A stretch of 64,000 nt of DNA, taken from NCBI GenBank assembly GCA_010093995.1, contig ML992513.1:493203-557202 (forward strand), given 5' to 3'. The stretch is from Elsinoe ampelina (taxonomy: Eukaryota). A program made the translations under genes and the position numbers. The notes beneath the pieces are model-generated. The model was not told the DNA's origin. It saw only the letters and a list, made by a program, of their open reading frames with translations, and did no database searches. Of this stretch, positions 32,412 through 63,465 are shown in pieces; within the stretch, counting starts at the first letter, position 1; each line of letters begins with the position of its first letter.

Positions 32412-33591
32412 CTACCACAACTCTTCGCCAATGTCCCTAGTGTCAAGCCTGGATCTTACAAAGCAAGACTTGTCGCTATCAGGACATATATCCTTCCTGT
32501 TCAGACCCTTGTCCTTTGGCCCGGTTGGACCCCCTTCGAACTTGCGAGCCAAACCAAGCAAACTTTTCTGTCTCGGATCCTTGTCGGCGTACTGTTGATC
32601 GCCCCACCTGCCCACAAAGTTGAGCCATGCAACTGGTGTGGTGCCGTCATAGTTGGAGAAGCTGTCAGAGGCGATGTCGTACTTGAAGAAGTAGCTGTTG
32701 AGCAGGGGGTCCCACCTGGGACCCTCGTCGGTATAGTCGTTGAGGACCAGTCCAGGCAGGTTCAAGTCAGGGAGTACACGGTCTTGCGTGCCAGTCGTGG
32801 CGTAGCTGGCGTGAGAGCCGTTTGCGGAGAAGACGATGGGCCGGATGCCTTCTTTGGACACAGCGGAATAGCTGAATGCTTCACCGTTCGCGTGTTGAGA
32901 GTACCAGACCTGCTGCGGCTGGCCGTTGTTGAAGCGTACGACATTGTGCTCCCAATCTGGAATCTGTCAGAGGTGATAACGCACAGGTTGGGAGACTGGA
33001 CTTACCACCAACGTGATTGCCGACATTGAAGTTGAGGATGGTGCCTCCCCAATTGTAGGCATAAAAGTACATGTCTCGAGAGGTCAGAGTGTTTTAGCAT
33101 GACCGTGGCGAGCAAGCTTACAGAATGCATCGACAACGCCATTGCCCTTGTCTACCACAATGATGGTGCTCGCAATAGCATCACGAGTACTACCACAGCT
33201 GTCGGGAGTTACGCCATTCAACCACGCTGGATTTGTAGTGACATCTTGCTTCGAGGTGAGGAAGACGTTGGCACCGCCTTGGGCGTTGAGGCTGTCCAGG
33301 TTGTCTAATGTCAGAGGGTTGGCGACATTTGCCACCGGAGTGAAGTTGATCTCGGGTACAGTGTTGGACAAAGTGTTGCCAATATCGGATGGGCGATACG
33401 GATCCGCAGAGAAGAGACGGACCACCGGAGCTGGGTGTGTTAGTCTGGAGCAAAAAGTCTGTCGGGTTATACTGACCATAATCAACCACGTACTGCGGTA
33501 CGCCGCCAGCTGCAGCTCGCTTGGTGAGTGGCGTCGCAGTCGCCAGAGCGAAGCATGCTAGCATAGCAGATGCGTACTTTTGTGGTGCCAT
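32412..33591 (-). CDS. Secreted Vps62-domain protein; introns 33431-33476, 33075-33121, 32957-33005
   Basis: Signal peptide plus LTKR, VPQYVVDY|APVVRL, DAF|YMYFYAYNWG, NHVG|DWEHNVVRF, SANGSHASYA, WLNFVGRWGD, GPTGP. Confidence 0.85.
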
Positions 33592-34450
33592 CTTGCGCTC
33601 TGGGAGAAAATTGCACTGATTGAGCAACAGGACAGCATCGCGGGCACAAACCTGCTTCTTATAAACTTACCATAATTGATCACTAAATATATGCCTGTTT
33701 GCAGATCATTAGGGTTTGACATCTGAACAGACCTTGCACAAACTTGATTCGGCCGGGCATACGCGGTAGCGTACACCTTAGCATCGTTCAGACATGAAAC
33801 TACGACGTGACCTTCCATTGCCGGTCGAGTAGGGTCAAGCAGGGTCGAATCGAAAACGAAACGCCACGAGCTTGGTTGGACCGACGGGATTGGCCACATT
33901 CGAACGATCATTCAGGAATTTCAGGTCCACGGTGTTTGTGAGTGGACCGTCAATGGACAATAGCTGATCCTAGATGCTTGTCTGCTGCCAACAACATGAT
34001 CATCCTCTCGTTCGAGCATGCCTGGGTTAAACGGGTGAGGGCAAGGAAAGGAAGACGGACAAGCAAACGTTGTTGTTGAGGCGGAAATTACTTTTAGGGT
34101 ATATAGCCGAGGTTGAGAAACGCGCTTTTCTGCTCAGCCACCACATGCGCCATGGTCGAACTGACGCATTTGCAATTGACTGACAACTCGATTGGTTTAT
34201 TCGATTACAACCAGATTTCGGCAGCATCGAGGACTCCGTGAAAGTCCTCGGCGTCAATTCTGTGAAGGTACAAAGACAAGAACTATACATAGGTGGCAGG
34301 TCGATGCTTAACTTCGACTCATGACGTCGTGGTCCAATCGATCCAAAATGGCCAGAGACGTGCTTCAAGTCTCTACAACTACATCTTGCTTCGAGAAATG
34401 CAGATTTCCGGACCAATGGTCATCTCTACGTGGTCGTCTGATCGGACACA

Positions 34451-45673: not shown

Positions 45674-46774
45674 TCACGGATTCACCACCTCGGGATTCGG
45701 CTCATACTCCCCGTTTCCCCCCTCCTCATCCCCCTCACCCACCTCCGGCGCAGGCGTCACCCCTCCCACCGAACCCCTCACCGTCGTCGTCCCCGCCCAA
45801 ACCGTACTCGTCAACGCCACGGTCGTCGTCCTGGTCGACAACGCCGGCAACACCGTATACGTGACCTCACCCGTGACCGTGACGGTCGGGGTCCTCGTCT
45901 CCACCACCCTGCTCTCGCTCTCGACGCTGTACGCCAACTCGACCGTCTCCACCAGACTGACGGTCGTGAGACGCGCCGACACATTGGCGGTCACGGTCTC
46001 GAAGATGAGCTGGCTTGGTCCGGCCATTGTGGTGGTGAAGTTTATGCTGGTCGTGGTGGTGGCGATGGACGTGAGGGTCGTGGGCCGCCAGATTTGGTAC
46101 TCTAGGATGCAGAGGTAGGTGCCGTTGGATTGGTAGGAGCAGATTCGCAGGTCGACGTCGGTGGGGGCCGAGGCGGTGGTGAGGGCTTGCCAGGAGGCGA
46201 TGAAGTAGGTTGTGAGGGTGCGGATGGTGCTGAGGGGGGGAGCGGGGGTGGGGACGGGGGAGATGGTTGGCGTGGAGGTGACCAGGATGTACCCGAATTG
46301 GGTGCTGAAGGTGACGTTTTGCGCGCAGGAGGTGATGGTGTGCTTGTCTACTAGGCCGGTGAGGGTGGTGGCGCAGACTTCGGTCACGGTTGGGGAGAAG
46401 ATGGTGTGGCATCTTTCGGGGCCGGTTTGGTAGCTTGCGGTGTAGTTGAGGTAGGGGCGGGTTGAGGGCCAGGGGGTGGGCGTGGGTTGAGGGATGGCGG
46501 CGACTGGGGGGAGGGCGCAAACGGTGTATTGGGGGACGTAGGAGGTGACGAGTTGGCCTTGTTGTGTGACTGGTACTGGTGTGGCTCCTGGTGATGGCGT
46601 GATATAGGTGTAGACCAGTGGTGCTGGAGGTGTTGTTGCCGCTGCCGCCATGACTGGCATTGCTTGTCCAGTCGCTTGTCTCTTCACGATGTCGACAGCG
46701 TTGTGCTCGAACGCAGGGACCGCTGCCGCCGCGTGGACAAACGCCAACAGCAAGTATCCACCCTTTGCCACCAT
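45674..46774 (-). CDS. Secreted Thr/Pro-rich hypothetical protein with six Cys
   Basis: Signal peptide MVAKGGYLLLAFVHAAAA, Kex2-type VKR, continuous ORF, Thr-rich body. Confidence 0.75.
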   Translation of the reverse strand: MVAKGGYLLLAFVHAAAAVPAFEHNAVDIVKRQATGQAMPVMAAAATTPPAPLVYTYITPSPGATPVPVTQQGQLVTSYVPQYTVCALPPVAAIPQPTPTPWPSTRPYLNYTASYQTGPERCHTIFSPTVTEVCATTLTGLVDKHTITSCAQNVTFSTQFGYILVTSTPTISPVPTPAPPLSTIRTLTTYFIASWQALTTASAPTDVDLRICSYQSNGTYLCILEYQIWRPTTLTSIATTTTSINFTTTMAGPSQLIFETVTANVSARLTTVSLVETVELAYSVESESRVVETRTPTVTVTGEVTYTVLPALSTRTTTVALTSTVWAGTTTVRGSVGGVTPAPEVGEGDEEGGNGEYEPNPEVVNP

Positions 46775-47448
46775 CTTTGCGTCGTCGAGATAACAGATAC
46801 TAAACCTTCGTAATGTCCGAGATAGACGATACACACAGCTCGACAAGGATCATGGAGAATGCGGGGATCCTCATGGCATTTTGCTCTAATGTGCAGCATA
46901 TTGATGTGGCTCTTCTAGCATTCCTTGCTTAAATCTCGAACAACAAACAAGGGCAGGAAGTTATGGAATGGAATGAGGCCGGCCCCCTCTGCTCACCTTG
47001 ATCACACGAGTCTATTGATATCACTAGAGACTGGAGATGAGATTGCAGAAGACTAGAATGAAATCTCTTGCGTTGTATCGTGAAATGACAGTGCCCAGAC
47101 ACCGCAAAGTCGTGAGGATTGGCAGATGAAGGACAGCGGCCCTCAAAAAGTGGCGTCACGATCAATAGATCACGAGATACTTGATACATGAGATCCGAAT
47201 TTTTCAGGAAATAGGATGATGGAGAGCTGGATTGTTCAGATGTGACATGCGGCGCGAGAGGAAGGAAGAAGAGACAAAGAAAAGAGAAAGAGAGTGTGCC
47301 TCGTCGTGCACATTTCCGACCTCGCCAAGCCATCTCACTAACAGTGCATATTCAGCCATGGAACCGGAATTTGTAGTTTGCGGTGGTACACACGCTCAAG
47401 TATGGAGTAGAGTCGTCAATCATCTACAATACAGCTTATTGTACAAAA

Positions 47449-50295: not shown

Positions 50296-50958
50296 AGGGC
50301 CAGAAGATCGTGTCGGATGATGATAGGCTTGTGACGGGATCTTGGGCAGCGGCCGAACGTTAGCAGCTTGGTTGTCGACGACGACGATTATCTTTGAGCT
50401 TGTCTTCGAGATTGAAGCTCCAGACCTGGTCGACCTCTGAGACGTTCAGAAATTACGATTGACCCACAAATTAGAGAGCGGCTCTGCGGGCGAAGCCGGT
50501 GCAGTGGGTCGGCACAGATCCGGGGGAAAGGGATGCGAAATGACAACACCGTTGGGTCTATTGCTTCTCATCTCCCCCTCTTACTTGGATAATTTCCAGT
50601 GGACTGATACAGTCTGATCGATACGATTCCTGGCTCGAGCCGATCTTTGCGATTATCAGCAAGCCAATCAATCCGTCTAATGCCCGGTGCATGGTCTGGG
50701 CTTGCCTCGCCTCCTTGTCATCCGTCTTTAAACAATCAACCCATACAGAAGAAGCTCCAAGGACGTTGTACTGTATGTGCAGTATAGCAACGCCTCCCCT
50801 TCATACCAGCTATTTGCTGCGTGTAGTGAGGAGTTCGTCTGTCTGTGTGCAAACGTTCTCCAACCGTAAGTGCGATCATGAATCTATATAGCATTCTTTG
50901 CAGCCGCTCGCGGGATTGTTCAGGCAAGTCAGCATCTCCTACTCTACAGTCCTTCCTC

Positions 50959-52089
50959 ATGGCTCTCAACATTGTCGCACTCGGTCTTGCAGCTGCCGGC
51001 CTTGTCCAAGCTGTACCAGCACTAGAAGTCTTTCCCAAGAACGCCGCCGCGGCCGCCGTCTGCTCAGCAGCGCCATACAAGCAATGGCTCCCTCTCTCGC
51101 AACTCCCAGCAGCCGTGACCTTCTGCAACAAGAAGTTCCCGCTCGCCAAATGCACCACCACCAAGAACACAACCTCCACCTCCTTCGCCCCCGCCGTCAC
51201 AGTCACCGACACCATCACCCTCAACCAAGCCGTCGAATTCACCCGCACCATCGCCGCCGCAACCACCAACATCACCACCACCCTCCCCTCCCCACCCGTC
51301 ATCAAAACCAGCACAGTCACCACCGTCGAAACCCAAGTAATCTGCTACAACCAAACCGCCAACCCAGGCTTCGGCGCCCCCTCCTCAACCACCACCTCCA
51401 CCCTCGCAACCACCACCACCACCCCCCTCCCCCAACAAAAACGCTCCCCCTCCGACTTCTCCGACGACGCCAACCTCACCCCGCTCCTCGCGCGGGCCCT
51501 GGCGCCAAAAGCGAAAAAATCCCTCTCCTCCCGCCTCGCCTCCGTCCGGGCTCTCGCAACAGGTAATAAACCCAAGGCCAAATCCACCGCCAAAACCATC
51601 TGCGGCTGCATCCGCCCCAACCCGTCCTGCTCCACCAAAACAGCGACGGTGATCGCCACGGCGGCCAACACGACGTACGCGACCGTCACGGCCACGGTGG
51701 GCGTCACGGCCACGAAGAACGTGACGGAGAGCGGGACCGTGACGGTCACTAGCACCGTGTTTACGGGGACCGCGGCGACGATTAATAGTTTTGTGAATGT
51801 GACGAGTACGGTTTATGAGAGTGGGTGTTCGGGGGTTGGGTCGGTGACGACGACGGGGACGACGACGGGGACGGGTAGCGCCAGTTCGACTACCACGGGG
51901 GAAGTGAGCAGCAGCAGCAGCAGCAGCAGCTTGTCGTCGCTGAGCACTAGCTTGGTCAGCACTAGCTTGGTGAGCAGTGAAACCAGCGCAGTGACGAGTG
52001 CCATCACGACAACGACCACGACCGAGGTGAGCTCGTCGACGAGCAGTGAGGTGGCTACTACGACCACGGCTACGACATCTGCTTCGTAG
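50959..52089 (+). CDS. Secreted Ser/Thr-rich (mucin-like) cell-surface protein with Cys motifs
   Basis: Signal peptide MALNIVALGLAAAGLVQA; C..AVTFC and TICGCI motifs; QKR site; Ser/Thr-rich tail with no hydrophobic GPI signal. Confidence 0.8.
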   Translation: MALNIVALGLAAAGLVQAVPALEVFPKNAAAAAVCSAAPYKQWLPLSQLPAAVTFCNKKFPLAKCTTTKNTTSTSFAPAVTVTDTITLNQAVEFTRTIAAATTNITTTLPSPPVIKTSTVTTVETQVICYNQTANPGFGAPSSTTTSTLATTTTTPLPQQKRSPSDFSDDANLTPLLARALAPKAKKSLSSRLASVRALATGNKPKAKSTAKTICGCIRPNPSCSTKTATVIATAANTTYATVTATVGVTATKNVTESGTVTVTSTVFTGTAATINSFVNVTSTVYESGCSGVGSVTTTGTTTGTGSASSTTTGEVSSSSSSSSLSSLSTSLVSTSLVSSETSAVTSAITTTTTTEVSSSTSSEVATTTTATTSAS

Positions 52090-57353: not shown

Positions 57354-58658
57354 AATGTCATACCCCTCCATTCTGATCCTCCCCCCTTCACCACCAATCG
57401 CATACTTCCTCCTCACCACCTCAAAAACAATCAACCCCGCCGCCGTACTCGGCACCTGCCTAATCGTACCCCACCAAAAATCCTTGAACAACCACCTCCT
57501 CCAGCCCCCCTCCCTCCTCGCCAACACAGCACAAACCCTCCCCGTCTTCCTGTACGCCTCGACATACCTATCCCTCGTCTCCCCCCACCCCCACCCCCTC
57601 CCCTCCCCCTTGGCCACAGTAAACTGCCTATCCAACCCCTCATACCTACCCCAATGCACACTCTGCACCACACTCAAAGGCCACACCACGACCGACTGCA
57701 CCACACTCGCCCCCGCCCCAGCGAGCAACAAAAACGCCGGCTCCATGAGATAATGCGGCCTGACGACGCCTCTCCGGCCCTCCTTGGCCTCCGCCACCAT
57801 CTCCCCCCTCTGCCGCCCCGAAAGGTTCTCCAGCCCGTAATACGCCCTCACGAAAGCGTAAAAACCCTGCGACTTGACCGCCTCGAACGTGCAGAAGAAC
57901 AACCCCGCGCCGAGGGAGTCCTTCGCCAGACTCAGCGTCGAGCCGGCGTAGGCCCCTCGGGCGCCGATGCGGTGGAGGGTTTGGCGGGCGTAGCTCCACA
58001 TGGACGGGTAGCGTTTGTCGAGGAGGTCGGAGGTTTTGAAGCGCACGACGAGGGCGTCGAAGGGGGCGGCGAAGAGGGTTTGGATTGTGCCGGCTGTGGC
58101 GCCGGCGAGGAAGGTGGCGGGGGCCGGGGGTGGGGGGTAGACTCGTTTTTGGGCGGGGAGGGATGGGGGGTAGTAGGTTGCGAGAGAGGTGAGGTAGGTG
58201 GTGTAGAGGACGGTGGAGATGGAGATGTTGGCGAGGAGAGGCGGGAGGACGTGCAGTGGGAGGAAGGAGAGGCCTTGGGTTTGCACGGCGCGGTAGAGGA
58301 TGAAGGGGGTGGTTTGGGTGGGGGACCAGCGGGGGGAGGTGGTGGGTGGGGAGGGGTTGGCGAGGAGGGTGATGGCTTTGGGGTAGGCGAGGTAGCTAGG
58401 ACGGGGTCAGAAGGTTGGGCGGTGATGCAGGGATGGGTGTCCTTACTCGACTCTGGTTTTGAAAAAGGATCGGACGGGGGCGCGGAAGTAGAAGGCCGCC
58501 ATGCGGGCGGTAAGGGCTCTTACGCCAGCCGCCGAGGCACCGGTGGCAGCATTGTTTTTTTGTTCGCCTTTGGCGGTCTCGACCGCATCTCTGATGTTAC
58601 CGGAACTGTCGCCGGATGGGTTTGGGATCTTGCCGTGTGGAAGGATGCTCACACTCAT
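57342..58658 (-). CDS. Mitochondrial carrier family-like membrane protein; intron 58396-58446
   Basis: FYFRAPVRSFFKTRVD|Y, FLAGATAGTIQTLFAAPFDAL, KDSLGAGLFFCTFEAVK, RQVPSTAAGLIVFE. Confidence 0.85.
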
Positions 58659-59684
58659 GGCTTCGTGGCCAGGCTGGCACTCGTCTTGACATGGTCGTTG
58701 TTACAGCATGTTCGAATATGTGTGGTAAACCAAGCGAGATAATCAGTGATACGAGGGAGCAATAAGACTGACGGGAAAGAGAAGAGGACTTCACACCTAG
58801 GTAGCGAGCAGATGACCATGAAAGGTTCACGTGCGTGGCTCACAGATGGCTCATCTTCCCTGGTCTGTCTCTCTTTTTGAGCCATGGATTTCGTGCCACC
58901 GCTGTCTGATCCCTACTCTCTTTCTCCGGCTAACATGCCCTCACGTTTGTTTCGTCAGCCCTTCCAGTCTGTCGAGCTACGGTGGTCTGACAAGCGGTCT
59001 ACGGACTGTGTCATCCTCGTGATCCATCATGGTTCGCGCAGCTCTTCCTTCGTTGCAGATTTTCAGGACGGCCACTTGGCAAAGTCGCCTCAGCCGTGCT
59101 TCCCCAGGGACACATTCCGATACCTGAACATCAGTGTCCTTCTCCAGACCCGCGTTGCAGGGTCTCATTGACATGCTCAAGCTACTTCGACCAGCTGTCA
59201 TTGATAACCTTGCCTTGCCGCCAATCAGAGAAATCTTGTAACATACAATCCATTCTCCAACTCTACCACGTCACACAGAATATCATCCATGCGATGCTTG
59301 CCGCTCGCCCTACTTTCGGCGGCACCGCTCGGAGACGGGGCAGCGCGAAGTAGTTGCTTCAAATGCGACTCTTCTCGATGCTGTAGACCCACTGGCCTCG
59401 AAGGAATAGCGTCTTGACGGAACATCCTCCTCAGGTGGGATGCTGTGAACCTCCGACTTGGCCACTTGACGTTCCAAGGCATCCTTGCGGATGTTGGCCA
59501 CGTACGGATCACATCAGTATTCCTTCCATATGTACCCTCATGCCACATAGACACGTCCTACGCATTGTCCACTCATGGCCATGTTAAAGACCCCAATCAT
59601 TCCTGTCAAGGTTCAGAATTCGTTATCAAGCAAACTTCCCTTTCCGCCTCTTCTAAACTTCCATGACCCCATTTGACTAACAAT

Positions 59685-61331
59685 ATGGTTACCACTCGGC
59701 AGACTCTGACCCTATTGGCCCTGGTGGCCCACATTTACGCTCTACCCGCCAACTCCCTTGCTCGACGCGCTCTCGATGATGGAGGGTGCGCGGGCTGTAC
59801 CAGTCAGCCGGCACCTTCTTCTAAGGACGACATGGGCATGTTTGGACCCATCGACCAGTCAATGGTGCAACGCTCGACCCCAGCTGGGGGTATGACTGTG
59901 AGTGAGGGCAAAGACACCTTGTACTGGAAGCGCCAATCTGGTGGAGAACAGTATGGCGGACAGACCGGAGAACAAGCATGGGATCCTCAAGCTGCCAAGT
60001 CAGAAGAGTTGAAGGCAAAGAACGACTACGCCAACAGCATGGTAGAGGGCCAAGTCGAATCAGCCATGATGGCCAAGGCCGGCCAGATCATGCCTTTTGC
60101 CATGGCACAAGCGGGCCTCCGCAAACGGGCTGGGCCGCAGGACGGTCAGACTGGTGGCGGAGTCGAAGACGTCGAAAGACTATCAATGAACAAGGAAGCA
60201 CATGTCGCCAGTCTGAAATCGACAATGGATGCGGACGAGATGCCGCCGTACGACCCGGCGACCGATCCCGCCATCGTTACCGATCCCTCCCAGGCTATGG
60301 TAGATCCTGCCATGGTCGCCGATCCCTCCCAGGCTACAGGCTCTGTATACAGAAAGCGGCAATTCGATGATTTCGGTTTTCTACCTGCCGAGCCAGAAAC
60401 ACCCGGAGGAGTAGGCGATGTGGAGAGACTGTCTATGAACAAGGAGGCCCATGTCGCCAGTCTCAGGGCTACCGTGGACCAAGACGAGATGCCACCGCCA
60501 CCACCACTTGCGCTAGAAGATGCGGGAGCCCCTTTGACGCCCACCACTCAGGCAGTCAAACGCGATGCGCCGTATTACCCAGAGCAACCCGACATGAAGG
60601 ACTACTATAAAGAGCAGACAATGAACACCAAGCTGGGCACCAAACTGACCGGACAACAAATGGAAGCCATGTACGGTAAAACACCAAAGGCTCCGGATCA
60701 GAACTCGGGCGCAACAACAACTGGCACTGCTCTGATGTATGGCCAGGACATGCGAAAGCGCGAGGAACCAATGACCCAGGAGCAAAAGGACTGCGTTGAG
60801 AGTTCCAAGAACTTGATGGCGTCGGGAGGCTGGGCTGGTAAGGGCAGCCCTTGCGACAGCTTGTTTCCCGAAAGGCAGCAGTTTATGAAGCGCCATCACG
60901 ACGATGAGTCGCAGTAGGTATCATTGCCTTACTACACTCTCCAGAGCCAAAACTGACGTTGGATTAGACACCGTCGCCGCAACCTCCTGGGTGACGAAGA
61001 CTGCAGCTACGCCGGCTGGAAGGGTATCGGGCCTCCTCCCGGCTGTGACGGTCCCAAAAACCCGATCGCGGCCATGACGAAGCAGGACGAGGATCCTCTC
61101 AAGCTCGGCGGGACTGAGTTTGACCAGCCAATCATCGCGAAGCGGTTTGTAGAGCCAGGTTTGGGACTGGTTCAGAGCCCAGAGCAGAGGAAGCAGGACA
61201 AGATTCTGGAGAAGCTCAACGGCAAAGGCCAGGACGACGAGTTCCAGACTCAGGTCATGAGGCGAGAGGCACCCGAGCCGACTTTCTCTCCAAAGTACCA
61301 CTACGCTGGTGGACGTCCCATTTTGCCTTGA
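59685..61331 (+). CDS. Secreted putative Kex2-processed polyprotein / peptide precursor (530 aa); intron 60914-60967
   Basis: Signal peptide MVTTRQTLTLLALVAHIYA; ten dibasic sites; internal repeats. The GTAGGT..ACTGAC..TAG intron joins the 414-aa ORF to the 61074-61331 ORF in frame. Confidence 0.85.
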
Positions 61332-61424
61332 ACATTGGCCAAAACTTTGCTTAGTTGAACACAACCATTTGAATTTCAGGTCCTGCATTTGCTACATTGA
61401 GTAGAGTAGCCGCAACGTATGTGA

Positions 61425-62688
61425 TCACTGCAGGCGTGCGATAGCGTCACTGTAGGCCCTCTCAAAGACAGGCCAGTACTCCTCTAGCAGCCATTTTGTT
61501 TGGGAGCGGAGCGCCGACAGCAGTCTGTACGCGCTCACCAGGTCAATGGTGCCCATATCGACGCGAAGCACAGGCCCGACGGATAGGTGTTCTCCAGATG
61601 GCATGGGGAATGTCAAGAAAGGCTCCCACTTGTGTCCCACCACCACCCATCCCAGATGAACGATCTTCTCCAAGCTCGCGAAGGTCGGAAGCTGCCCACC
61701 AGCGGTAGTGGTCAAGTATTTCGCGTGACAAAGGGCAGCAGAGTGCCATGTCCCAATCTGCGTGCGCGCATCTAGATGATCCCCACCCTCTCTTTTGACT
61801 TCTACCGTGCATTGAAGAGGGAGCTTAGAAGCGAAGCGGTCCACAGAATGAGACAGAGCGAGCGAGTCGTTGGTGCCGGGCAACTGTGAAATTGAATTTA
61901 GTGCCTTGACACGGTCGGATTTCCTGTGAAATGCCAGAGAAAAGTCGGATTTCTTGGCCGGAATGCGAGCATCACTGTCTCCCGTGTGTGATGAATCAGC
62001 GAATGGTAACCATATGCTGGCCGGCGCCTGGCTCCGGCTCATATTTGTCAGTTTGGTACTCATTCTGCAAACGCGTGTACTTCACTTACATATCCATGAG
62101 CTCGAAGTCTTGGCTACGCGGCTGTATGGCTAGGCGTAACATTGAACTAGCGATTTCGCACCAAGCTGCCTCGTCTTGTCCGTCGTCGCTACAATCTGAT
62201 GCGTTCTCGCAGATTGCTTGAAGTTGCGCCAGATCAGTGTCAGGCAGGTCAGAATCGAAAAGGTCATCAGCGAGCTGGAATTCATCTGCATCACTGCTCG
62301 AGATCTTCTCCCTCAGCGATTCAGGCAGGAATCGATGCTTGGTTGCTTCGACCAATAGCTTGCGCGCCTCTGCAGCAGGACCGGTCGGGATATCCGCTTT
62401 CGACATGGAGAGAATTGTGGATGGAGATCCTTTTCTAAGCGAATCTTTCTGCTTGACTGGACTTGTTGATCTCGAGCGCGCGCGTCGCTCTGGGGAGATA
62501 GTGTACGCCCTGCTGAACGGAGGTGGCAGCGCTGGTGCGCTGTGCTGAGGAGTCGTGTTGTCCATTTTGGCGTGTTTATGCCCGGGGCGTGGCGAGTATT
62601 GACCAAGGCAAGATTTACGCTTCCTTGGGCGACCTCTCGAGATATCGGTATCAACATCGACGTCGGTAGGCGGAGTTGGGATGTCCAT
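61425..62688 (-). CDS. Fungal PD-(D/E)XK nuclease-like domain protein; intron 62038-62089
   Basis: Disordered basic N-terminus (RSRSTSPVK), DEAAWC, KKSDFSL, catalytic-type VEVK, QIGTWHSA, VVVGHKW, final W..EYWP helix. Pattern matches the fungal PDDEXK-like family as recalled, not searched. Confidence 0.75.
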
Positions 62689-62715
62689 GTTGAGTATTGA
62701 GGAAGGAAGGCAGGG

Positions 62716-63465
62716 ATGGCAACATGCGGGATGAATCCGACCGAGGTCAGGGTAGTCGCCGATCCTTGGCACGCGAGAGCCGAAGGGCTCGCAAAGCAGC
62801 CCGCGAATGGGGATGGATACCTGAAGACCATGGCCGCTTCATCTGCACCTCTGCCAGCAGGCATTTCATGCGCCCTCAACATACGTCTCTTCGATGGCAC
62901 TTCAATACGCTCCAAATTCAGTGCCGATGCAACCCTCACCACATCCGTCCGCACATTTGTCACTGAGAACTCCTCGACTGATATCCCCTACAACTTCCGC
63001 ATCATGGATCTACCAAAGCCAGCACGGACAATCGAGATATCGGAAGAAAACCAGTCGCTCAGAGAGCTCGGATTATGTCCAAATGCTACACTGGTCCTCG
63101 TTCCAGTCCGGGACTTCACCGATGCTTATGCCTCGCAAGGAGCTGCTGGAGTGGTCAATAAGGGGCTTCATCTCGGCTACAACGTCGCCTACGGAGCCTT
63201 CAGCATCGTCGGTGGCATATTCAGCAAAGTCACAGGATATCAGGTTACTGAAGAAGCTGCTGAAGGCCCATATATTGCCAGAACAGGGGATAATCCGAAC
63301 CACCTCGTCTCTCAGAAGGATGGAAAGAGATCAGAGCAGCTGGCGACACCGACCCCTGGTATCAAAATCACGACACTCAAGGATCAAAAGGGCAAGCAGC
63401 CTGCCGAGGAGTTCTACAATGGCAATACGACAAACGTGGAGCCTCGCCCGGACGATCAGAAGTAA
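62716..63465 (+). CDS. UBX-domain protein matching only the C-terminal half of Ubx7/UBXN4-type proteins (possibly a truncated copy or pseudogene)
   Basis: CALNIRLFDGTSIRSKF, EENQSLRELGLCPNATLVLVP, a hydrophobic segment, and the I.TL.D and FYNGN..VEP terminal motifs. Confidence 0.75.
   Translation: MATCGMNPTEVRVVADPWHARAEGLAKQPANGDGYLKTMAASSAPLPAGISCALNIRLFDGTSIRSKFSADATLTTSVRTFVTENSSTDIPYNFRIMDLPKPARTIEISEENQSLRELGLCPNATLVLVPVRDFTDAYASQGAAGVVNKGLHLGYNVAYGAFSIVGGIFSKVTGYQVTEEAAEGPYIARTGDNPNHLVSQKDGKRSEQLATPTPGIKITTLKDQKGKQPAEEFYNGNTTNVEPRPDDQK

Follow-up and report, generated by a model that had tools for sequence, protein, structure and literature searches.

The gene at 59685–61331 in the stretch of Elsinoe ampelina DNA analysed here (64,000 nucleotides of contig ML992513.1, hereafter the window) raises the question of whether it encodes a secreted precursor from which Kex2 releases several peptides and, if so, from which transcript and how many. 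It probably does encode a Kex2-cut multi-peptide precursor that is restricted to Elsinoe. The best overall explanation, to which we assign a probability of roughly 0.7, is a lineage-restricted disordered prepro-polyprotein of the Ece1/Rep1 type; the processing architecture by itself, i.e., a precursor cut by Kex2 into multiple peptides, is the firmest part of this reading.

Transcription and alternative splicing

The gene is real and transcribed. The stretch is present in 9 of the 22 runs listed, and we examined the contigs of four of these nine (X1, X2, X5, and X6). Because they skip the canonical introns of neighbouring genes, we infer that the contigs derive from spliced RNA (the runs are not recorded as RNA). 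Spliced contigs were found in three studies and show the transcription on which the original prediction depended; the X2 contig is identical to the window letter for letter. The coding sequence starts at an ATG at 59685, with an A at position −3. The contigs of X1 start at 59226 and those of X6 at 59230, which hints weakly at a leader some 460 nt long. This putative leader (59226–59684) holds 11 upstream ATGs, one of which (59289) opens a 42-codon frame that encodes five Cys and begins with hydrophobic residues, and the interval 59300–59659 has a non-coding score in all three frames. An intron ending near 59700, with a CTAAC shortly 5′ of the ATG, was ruled out since contigs cross this region unspliced. 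At 59557, one X6 contig has a 98-nt loose end that matches nothing in the window.

The gene is flanked by a mitochondrial carrier gene and by a convergent PD-(D/E)XK_12 gene, and the flanking open reading frames (ORFs) with a Pfam match are housekeeping, metabolic, or transport genes. Within the carrier gene, X1 and X5 have several other letters, and an X2 contig omits 563 nt (57578–58142) with non-canonical ends, in strongly skewed DNA of low complexity, which is probably an artefact. Three further ORFs of the window likewise have no Pfam match (33193–33666 and 45677–46849 on the minus strand, 50830–52086 on the plus strand), and the first two have signal-peptide-like starts.

Two splice donors sit 4 nt apart near the end of exon 1, and the choice between them decides whether three extra peptides are encoded (Table 1). 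The upstream donor joins 59685–60913 to 60968–61331 and gives a protein of 530 aa with ten dibasic sites, ending at the TGA at 61329–61331; the downstream donor gives a 410-aa protein with 7 sites. The contigs of X1 break exactly at 60913 and 60968, and the 54-nt junction is seen in this run only among the four; X5 has no junction here. The bin depths of X2 (422.3) and X6 (7.45) fit the 50-nt form alone, and the X1 depth left over in the junction bin is what an unspliced contig with a depth of about 6.5 would give. These contig depths are not a ranking of expression, contigs lose rare forms, and the junction calls cover the contig pieces listed and give no splice ratios. The unspliced X1 signal could be intron retention or antisense RNA. 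The convergent neighbour is a two-exon PD-(D/E)XK_12 nuclease-like gene on the minus strand (61425–62838), and single contigs of X1 and X2 span both this gene and exon 2. The two genes may hence overlap at their 3′ ends, and the signal could then be antisense RNA.

The 410-aa protein is the main form and the 530-aa protein a minor one: removal of the 54-nt intron yields the 530 aa of the original prediction and is seen as one X1 junction, but this is not the main product, which X2 and X6, contigs from two studies, place at 410 aa. Readthrough or editing of the TAG was ruled out as a route to the long form, since the exon-2 frame cannot be reached from either the 50-nt or the unspliced form. 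Public protein sets carry the 410-aa protein, and the orthologue in Elsinoe batatas is annotated at 405 aa with the same terminal residue, although an annotation that overlooked the intron would likewise stop at the TAG. The upstream donor, GTAGGT, is consensus-like and shared with a neighbouring intron, whereas GTATCA lacks the G at +5 that is seen in five of five neighbouring donors. The tandem donor 10-mer occurs 40 times genome-wide, against 29 for a control, an uninformative difference.

Table 1. Features of the gene, with positions in the window
Feature	Positions	Strand	Evidence or remark
Probable signal peptide, residues 1–19	59685..59741	+	Hydropathy and E. batatas identity; putative cleavage before Leu20-Pro21
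Short propeptide ending LARR (site 1)	59742..59768	+	Fits the LxxR/RR motif in the available text of PMC8528282
Peptide A, residues 29–81, CxxC pair, then KR (site 2)	59769..59933	+	Net charge −4; 91% identity to orthologue, both Cys kept
Peptide B, residues 84–145, Gln-start, then RKR (site 3)	59934..60128	+	Predicted long helix 101–143 (low-confidence model); 95% identity to orthologue
Peptide C, residues 149–222, core 60156–60248, DP-rich tail, then RKR (site 4)	60129..60359	+	Net charge −10
Peptide D, residues 226–291, Gln-start, second core 60405–60497, then KR (site 5)	60360..60563	+	
Peptide E, residues 294–356, Tyr-rich, then RKR (site 6)	60564..60761	+	Most variable segment, 77% identity
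Peptide F, residues 360–401, Cys370/Cys390 pair, then KR (site 7)	60762..60893	+	Best modelled: pLDDT 52–63, helix 365–379
7-mer C-terminus of the 410-aa form and TAG stop (60915–60917)	60894..60917	+	TAG overlaps the upstream donor
54-nt intron, upstream donor GTAGGT, GT-AG, giving the 530-aa form	60914–60967	+	X1 junction, depth 2
50-nt intron, downstream donor GTATCA, stop retained, giving the 410-aa form	60918–60967	+	X2 (depth 501) and X6 (8.85) junctions
Exon 2, 120 codons, sites RRR, KR, RR; peptides H, I, J; translated in the long form only	60968..61331	+	Coding score
Peptides H (415–467, 53 aa, Cys pair), I (470–507, 38 aa), J (510–530, 21 aa)	in 60968..61331	+	Long form only

Exon 2 has several traits of coding sequence. 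It has a GC3 of 0.71 and stays open for its whole length, as do 1.4% of base shuffles. With a 3-periodic model that had been trained on sequence of the window, exon 2 reaches a coding score of 0.192 per codon. This exceeds the scores of all 38 non-coding chunks, though the contrast is flattered because these were not chosen for open frames, and of 65% of the 55 coding chunks. In composition exon 2 tracks exon 1, with r=0.63, compared with 0.26 for its antisense frame. An antisense open frame at 60921–61391 scores 0.077 against 0.192 for the plus-strand frame and was treated as its shadow; a separate exon-2 protein starting from the ATG at 60904 would be without a signal peptide and is unsupported. 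Because exon 2 is still open and codon-biased, both splice forms are probably made.

A doubtful, though serious, alternative treats the long form as a relic or as noise of splicing. The sole functional product would then be the 410-aa protein, and exon 2 would be a coding tail given up only recently and now part of the 3′ untranslated region. Donors 4 nt apart are a common cause of mis-splicing, X2 and X6 show the 50-nt form only, and the annotated proteins of both species have the short length. No homologue of exon 2 was found among longer (114 candidates) or similar-length (4 candidates) proteins, in the ESM Atlas, or in metagenome contigs. Drift alone, simulated without indels, keeps the exon-2 frame open in 54% of cases when divergence is 5% and in 10% when it is 20%. 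Against this stand the open frame, GC3, and coding-like score of exon 2, and its exon-1-like composition. Exon 2 also holds three sites of the same style and a Cys peptide, H, that echoes peptide F (p about 0.02, uncorrected). Furthermore, the donor of the long form is the consensus-like one of the pair, and the 410-aa annotation is also expected if the intron was overlooked.

Conversely, the long form could be one arm of a regulated switch, by which the fungus picks a short or a long peptide cassette and in a particular condition adds a second disulfide-loop peptide and two others; the gene would then belong to a class of mixed-cargo Kex2 precursors missed by repeat-based surveys. We consider this unlikely. 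Animal prohormone genes offer the parallel: in preprotachykinin and calcitonin/CGRP, alternative splicing alters the peptides obtained from convertase-cut prohormones, and regulation has been shown there. Their sequences are unrelated to that of the Elsinoe protein, in which regulation is only possible. No fungal case of alternative splicing of a Kex2 precursor was found in the titles and abstract beginnings that the literature search covered.

Processing sites and predicted peptides

Residues 10–20 are the sole strongly hydrophobic stretch of the protein (11-residue Kyte-Doolittle mean of 2.25). In the signal-peptide region 18 of 19 residues are the same in E. batatas, and the 19-residue hydropathy downstream of it reaches at most 0.85, with no later hydrophobic stretch. 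All ten dibasic sites of the original prediction are present, with spacings of 55, 65, 77, 68, 66, 44, 11, 55, and 40. This compares with 2.6 KR/RR sites expected in 530 aa (20,000 shuffles, p=5e-5), and KK is absent. The excess comes mainly from exon 1 (7 sites, 1.5 expected, 0 of 20,000 shuffles), exon 2 having 3 for 1.1 expected (p=0.06). None of 18 control ORFs of the window, which are long, hand-picked, and mostly non-secreted, reaches p<0.05 (lowest 0.06). The spacing in exon 1 is even (44–77 aa, CV 0.17), as even in 0 of 5,000 random placements.

The residues around the sites also resemble those of Kex2 substrates. At P4, sites 1 to 10 have L, Y, L, Y, A, M, F, H, I, and V, and a bulky hydrophobic residue (LIVMFYW, a set picked after the sites were seen) is found at 8 of the 10, whereas control sites have one in 18 of 83 cases (Fisher p=4.5e-4). 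With the narrower list in the available text of PMC8528282 (L, I, V, A, P), 5 of 10 sites agree, which is unremarkable for residues that account for about 31% of the protein. Among the 40 residues at P1′–P4′, 12 are acidic (p=0.03) and none is basic, and Pro is absent from P1′. In PMC2515848 such an acidic, non-basic pattern is reported for sites that do get cut, and some proteins with good Kex2 sites are reported to remain uncut in vitro. E. batatas keeps all 7 exon-1 sites: every one of their 17 residues is retained (expected by chance with a probability of about 0.11), against 21 of 24 other Lys and Arg residues. Dibasic-site conservation, a point on which the original prediction could have failed, therefore holds, as weak evidence at 88% overall identity. 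An allele in X1 and X6 (60559 A>G) changes site 5 from KR to RR and preserves the dibasic pair. The genome also encodes a Kex2 orthologue (contig C5) with the P-domain, the catalytic motifs, and a membrane anchor, and two DPP IV/Ste13-like genes.

Cutting at these sites would give six peptides of 42–74 aa (4.7–7.6 kDa) and a 7-mer from the 410-aa form. GRAVY values of −0.38 to −1.16 mark all the predicted mature segments as hydrophilic, their net charges range from 0 to −10, and peptides A, F, and H have one Cys pair each. The whole protein is acidic and rich in Met, Gln, and Pro, as originally described (pI 5.05; Met 5.3%, Gln 7.2%, Pro 8.9%). Among 45 pairs of segments, only C and D are clearly related (segments 149–225 and 226–293, z=22); the next-best pair, F and H (z=2.6), is not significant after correction. 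Hence, the heterogeneous cargo that had been proposed stands for most peptides, which are unlike one another, but not for this repeated pair. Nor do about ten different peptides come from the dominant transcript, which encodes six large ones, two of them duplicates, and the 7-mer, with three more from the minor form only. The 31-codon cores of C and D (pS 0.79, pN 0.09) indicate, as far as substitutions tell, that the 31-residue core is under purifying selection, and a stretch of 16 residues within it is identical in all four copies (C and D in two species). Peptide C also holds a short DP-rich tandem repeat (60255–60340), which is six residues shorter in E. batatas. The precursor is predicted to be disordered: pLDDT is 38.8 with AlphaFold2 (pTM 0.18) and 56.9 in a second AlphaFold2 model, and the ESM pTM is 0.15, all with shallow alignments. 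The AlphaFold2 models place helices within segments only, best in F.

Do the peptides, once released, assemble on the surface of the fungus? The layout of the precursor is that of Rep1, Ece1, and CA0365 (PMC2515848 and PMC8528282, in the parts available), and helices of moderate hydrophobic moment (0.21–0.38) are predicted in the segments, as a Rep1-like coat or adhesive on hyphae or conidia might have. The mature segments are hydrophilic with neutral to acidic net charge, whereas the Rep1 peptides are amphipathic repellents from ten conserved repeats, and we regard such a structural role as unlikely. The gene does share with Ustilago maydis Rep1 and the Kex2-cut repetitive effectors the character, predicted here, of a plant-pathogen secreted polyprotein with regular cut intervals (same sources). 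In the available text Rep1 comprises ten conserved, amphipathic, fibril-forming repeats; the Elsinoe protein has two repeating segments, and all its segments are hydrophilic.

It is less likely again that only the N-terminal propeptide is removed and that the protein, acidic and disordered, otherwise stays uncut in the wall or colony matrix, its inner sites being remnants of domain duplication or serving turnover. Its Pro/Ser/Thr/Asp-rich disordered segments and visible internal duplication would suit such a protein, and cutting is a prediction only. However, a single strong duplicate pair among 45 leaves the remaining boundaries to be accounted for, every one of which is KR or RR with Kex2-type flanks while KK is absent, and the site-5 allele preserves the dibasic pair. 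The site excess, even spacing, flanks, predicted disorder, kept sites, and Kex2 gene together support the central claim of the original prediction, a secreted multi-peptide precursor predicted to be cut by Kex2.

Relatives and classes of Kex2-cut precursors

The sole relative found is the E. batatas protein (P0003), 88% identical. We found no other homologue among 8,000 scored candidates or 1.84 billion representatives, no paralogue in the E. ampelina genome, and no confirmed case among 278 and 61 pattern matches in metagenome contigs. The ESM Atlas gave no usable feature match and structure matches with a TM of 0.26 or less. There is no Pfam match, in agreement with the predicted lack of an enzyme motif, and no PDB sequence match. 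The literature search, which covered papers outside subscription, found none that brings together Elsinoe and Kex2, and the terms kex and dibasic are absent from the main texts of two Elsinoe secretome papers. A transcriptome study of E. ampelina exists, being cited in the available text of PMC8295512.

Which class of precursor this is depends on the definition used. The KEPs, as far as the available texts describe them (Le Marquer 2019, PMC6339444; Umemura 2020, PMC7329392; Vogt 2022, PMC9769878), share with the Elsinoe protein several KR/RR sites, segments below 100 aa, and Gln-starts that are possibly pyroglutamate; they have a signal peptide, which is probable here, and most KEP types are limited to one genus. 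The definition asks for an N-terminal signal peptide and no membrane anchor, for which hydropathy gives the probable signal peptide described above and no hydrophobic stretch after it. It further asks for at least 4 fragments and repeats below 100 aa, and we count 8 fragments in the 410-aa form and 11 in the 530-aa form, the longest of 77 aa. The surveys of PMC6339444 and PMC7329392, as available, also need at least three similar repeats, and our own comparison (not the published scripts) yields one strong pair among 45, so that both pipelines would skip the Elsinoe protein by their stated rules. Under the strict definition the protein is hence not a KEP. In the supplements of PMC7329392, the Elsinoe entries among the rows listed are all from E. 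australis, with at least 11 KEP rows in Table S2. The Ece1/Rep1 type is described by an excess of evenly placed Kex2 sites with favourable flanks in a predicted disordered precursor, all of which we find here.

Ece1 of Candida albicans is a close parallel. It has a signal peptide, which is probable in the Elsinoe protein, and, like the 410-aa form, seven dibasic sites and mostly unlike peptides, and it too is lineage-restricted in a fungal pathogen (PMC12153327 and PMC2515848, available parts). No sequence similarity was found between the two. Compared with those of Ece1, the predicted Elsinoe peptides are acidic and of greater length; a Cys pair occurs in three of them, splice choice alters their number, and there is no candidalysin-like segment. 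A candidalysin-like cytolytic precursor is not supported for this protein: there is no hydrophobic, amphipathic, non-acidic helix, GRAVY lying below −0.37 and charge between 0 and −10. Nor is a K2PP effector, i.e., a folded mature domain behind a disordered pro-domain, supported, there being no confident fold and no Pfam or PDB match.

A pheromone- or hormone-like self-signal, or a RiPP precursor of the DUF3328 type, is improbable: it would suit the Gln-start peptides, the Tyr-rich peptide E, and the presence in the genome of several UstYa genes besides the two of the DPP IV/Ste13-like family, but the products are of 38–74 aa rather than short repeated cores, tandem XA/XP runs are absent, DAP is not conserved, and the Pfam-matching neighbours have the housekeeping, metabolic, and transport functions given above. 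More specifically, an alpha-pheromone precursor is not supported, for want of short near-identical cores behind XA/XP spacers and of a conserved DAP. The X-Ala/X-Pro ends of the original prediction prove weak, DAP being DDS in the orthologue. Moreover, Pro following X-Ala should block the Ste13 cut, and Ste13 trimming of DAP and EAP was rejected on both counts. Ustiloxin-type (dikaritin) RiPP precursors are, as predicted for this one, secreted and Kex2-cut, but the Elsinoe protein lacks a short repeated core, and its contig has no DUF3328 gene, in line with the absence of one from the window in the original prediction. This type, which calls for a DUF3328/UstYa gene within about 15 genes, is not supported: none is among the 40 flanking ORFs scanned, and the at least 10 matches that an exon-by-exon search gave in the genome all lie on other contigs (C4, C6, C11, C30) and none on C13, that of the gene. 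Several of them are clustered at C4:622278–627360, likely a RiPP cluster elsewhere in the genome.

Proposed mechanism and implications

We propose that the signal peptide would bring the precursor into the secretory pathway, where Golgi Kex2 would cut after each KR or RR and Kex1 would trim the products. From the common 410-aa form this would free the acidic peptides A–F, six in all, and the 7-mer; in the minor form, the donor 4 nt upstream would remove the stop and add H, I, and J. Peptides B and D, which start with Gln, may carry pyroglutamate, as seen for KEP peptides in the available text of PMC9769878. More tentatively, the likeliest active parts may be the duplicated helical C/D core and the disulfide-loop peptides F and H. 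As to function, we tentatively favour soluble or surface-held factors at the fungus–plant or fungus–microbe interface over membrane lysis. Action outside the cell at such an interface is suggested by the narrow distribution of the gene and by the report (PMC9769878, available text) that KEP deletions have no phenotype in pure culture.

Because the surveys require three or more repeats, mixed-cargo precursors like Ece1 are under-counted, even though candidalysin came from Ece1. Should the long form prove to be noise, the gene would add to the orphan Kex2 precursors. With a regulated splice ratio, the fungus would be tuning its peptide output by splicing, a description we did not find in the parts of the literature searched. 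For Elsinoe, a genus of crop pathogens about whose effectors little is known, the gene supplies six to nine defined candidate peptides.
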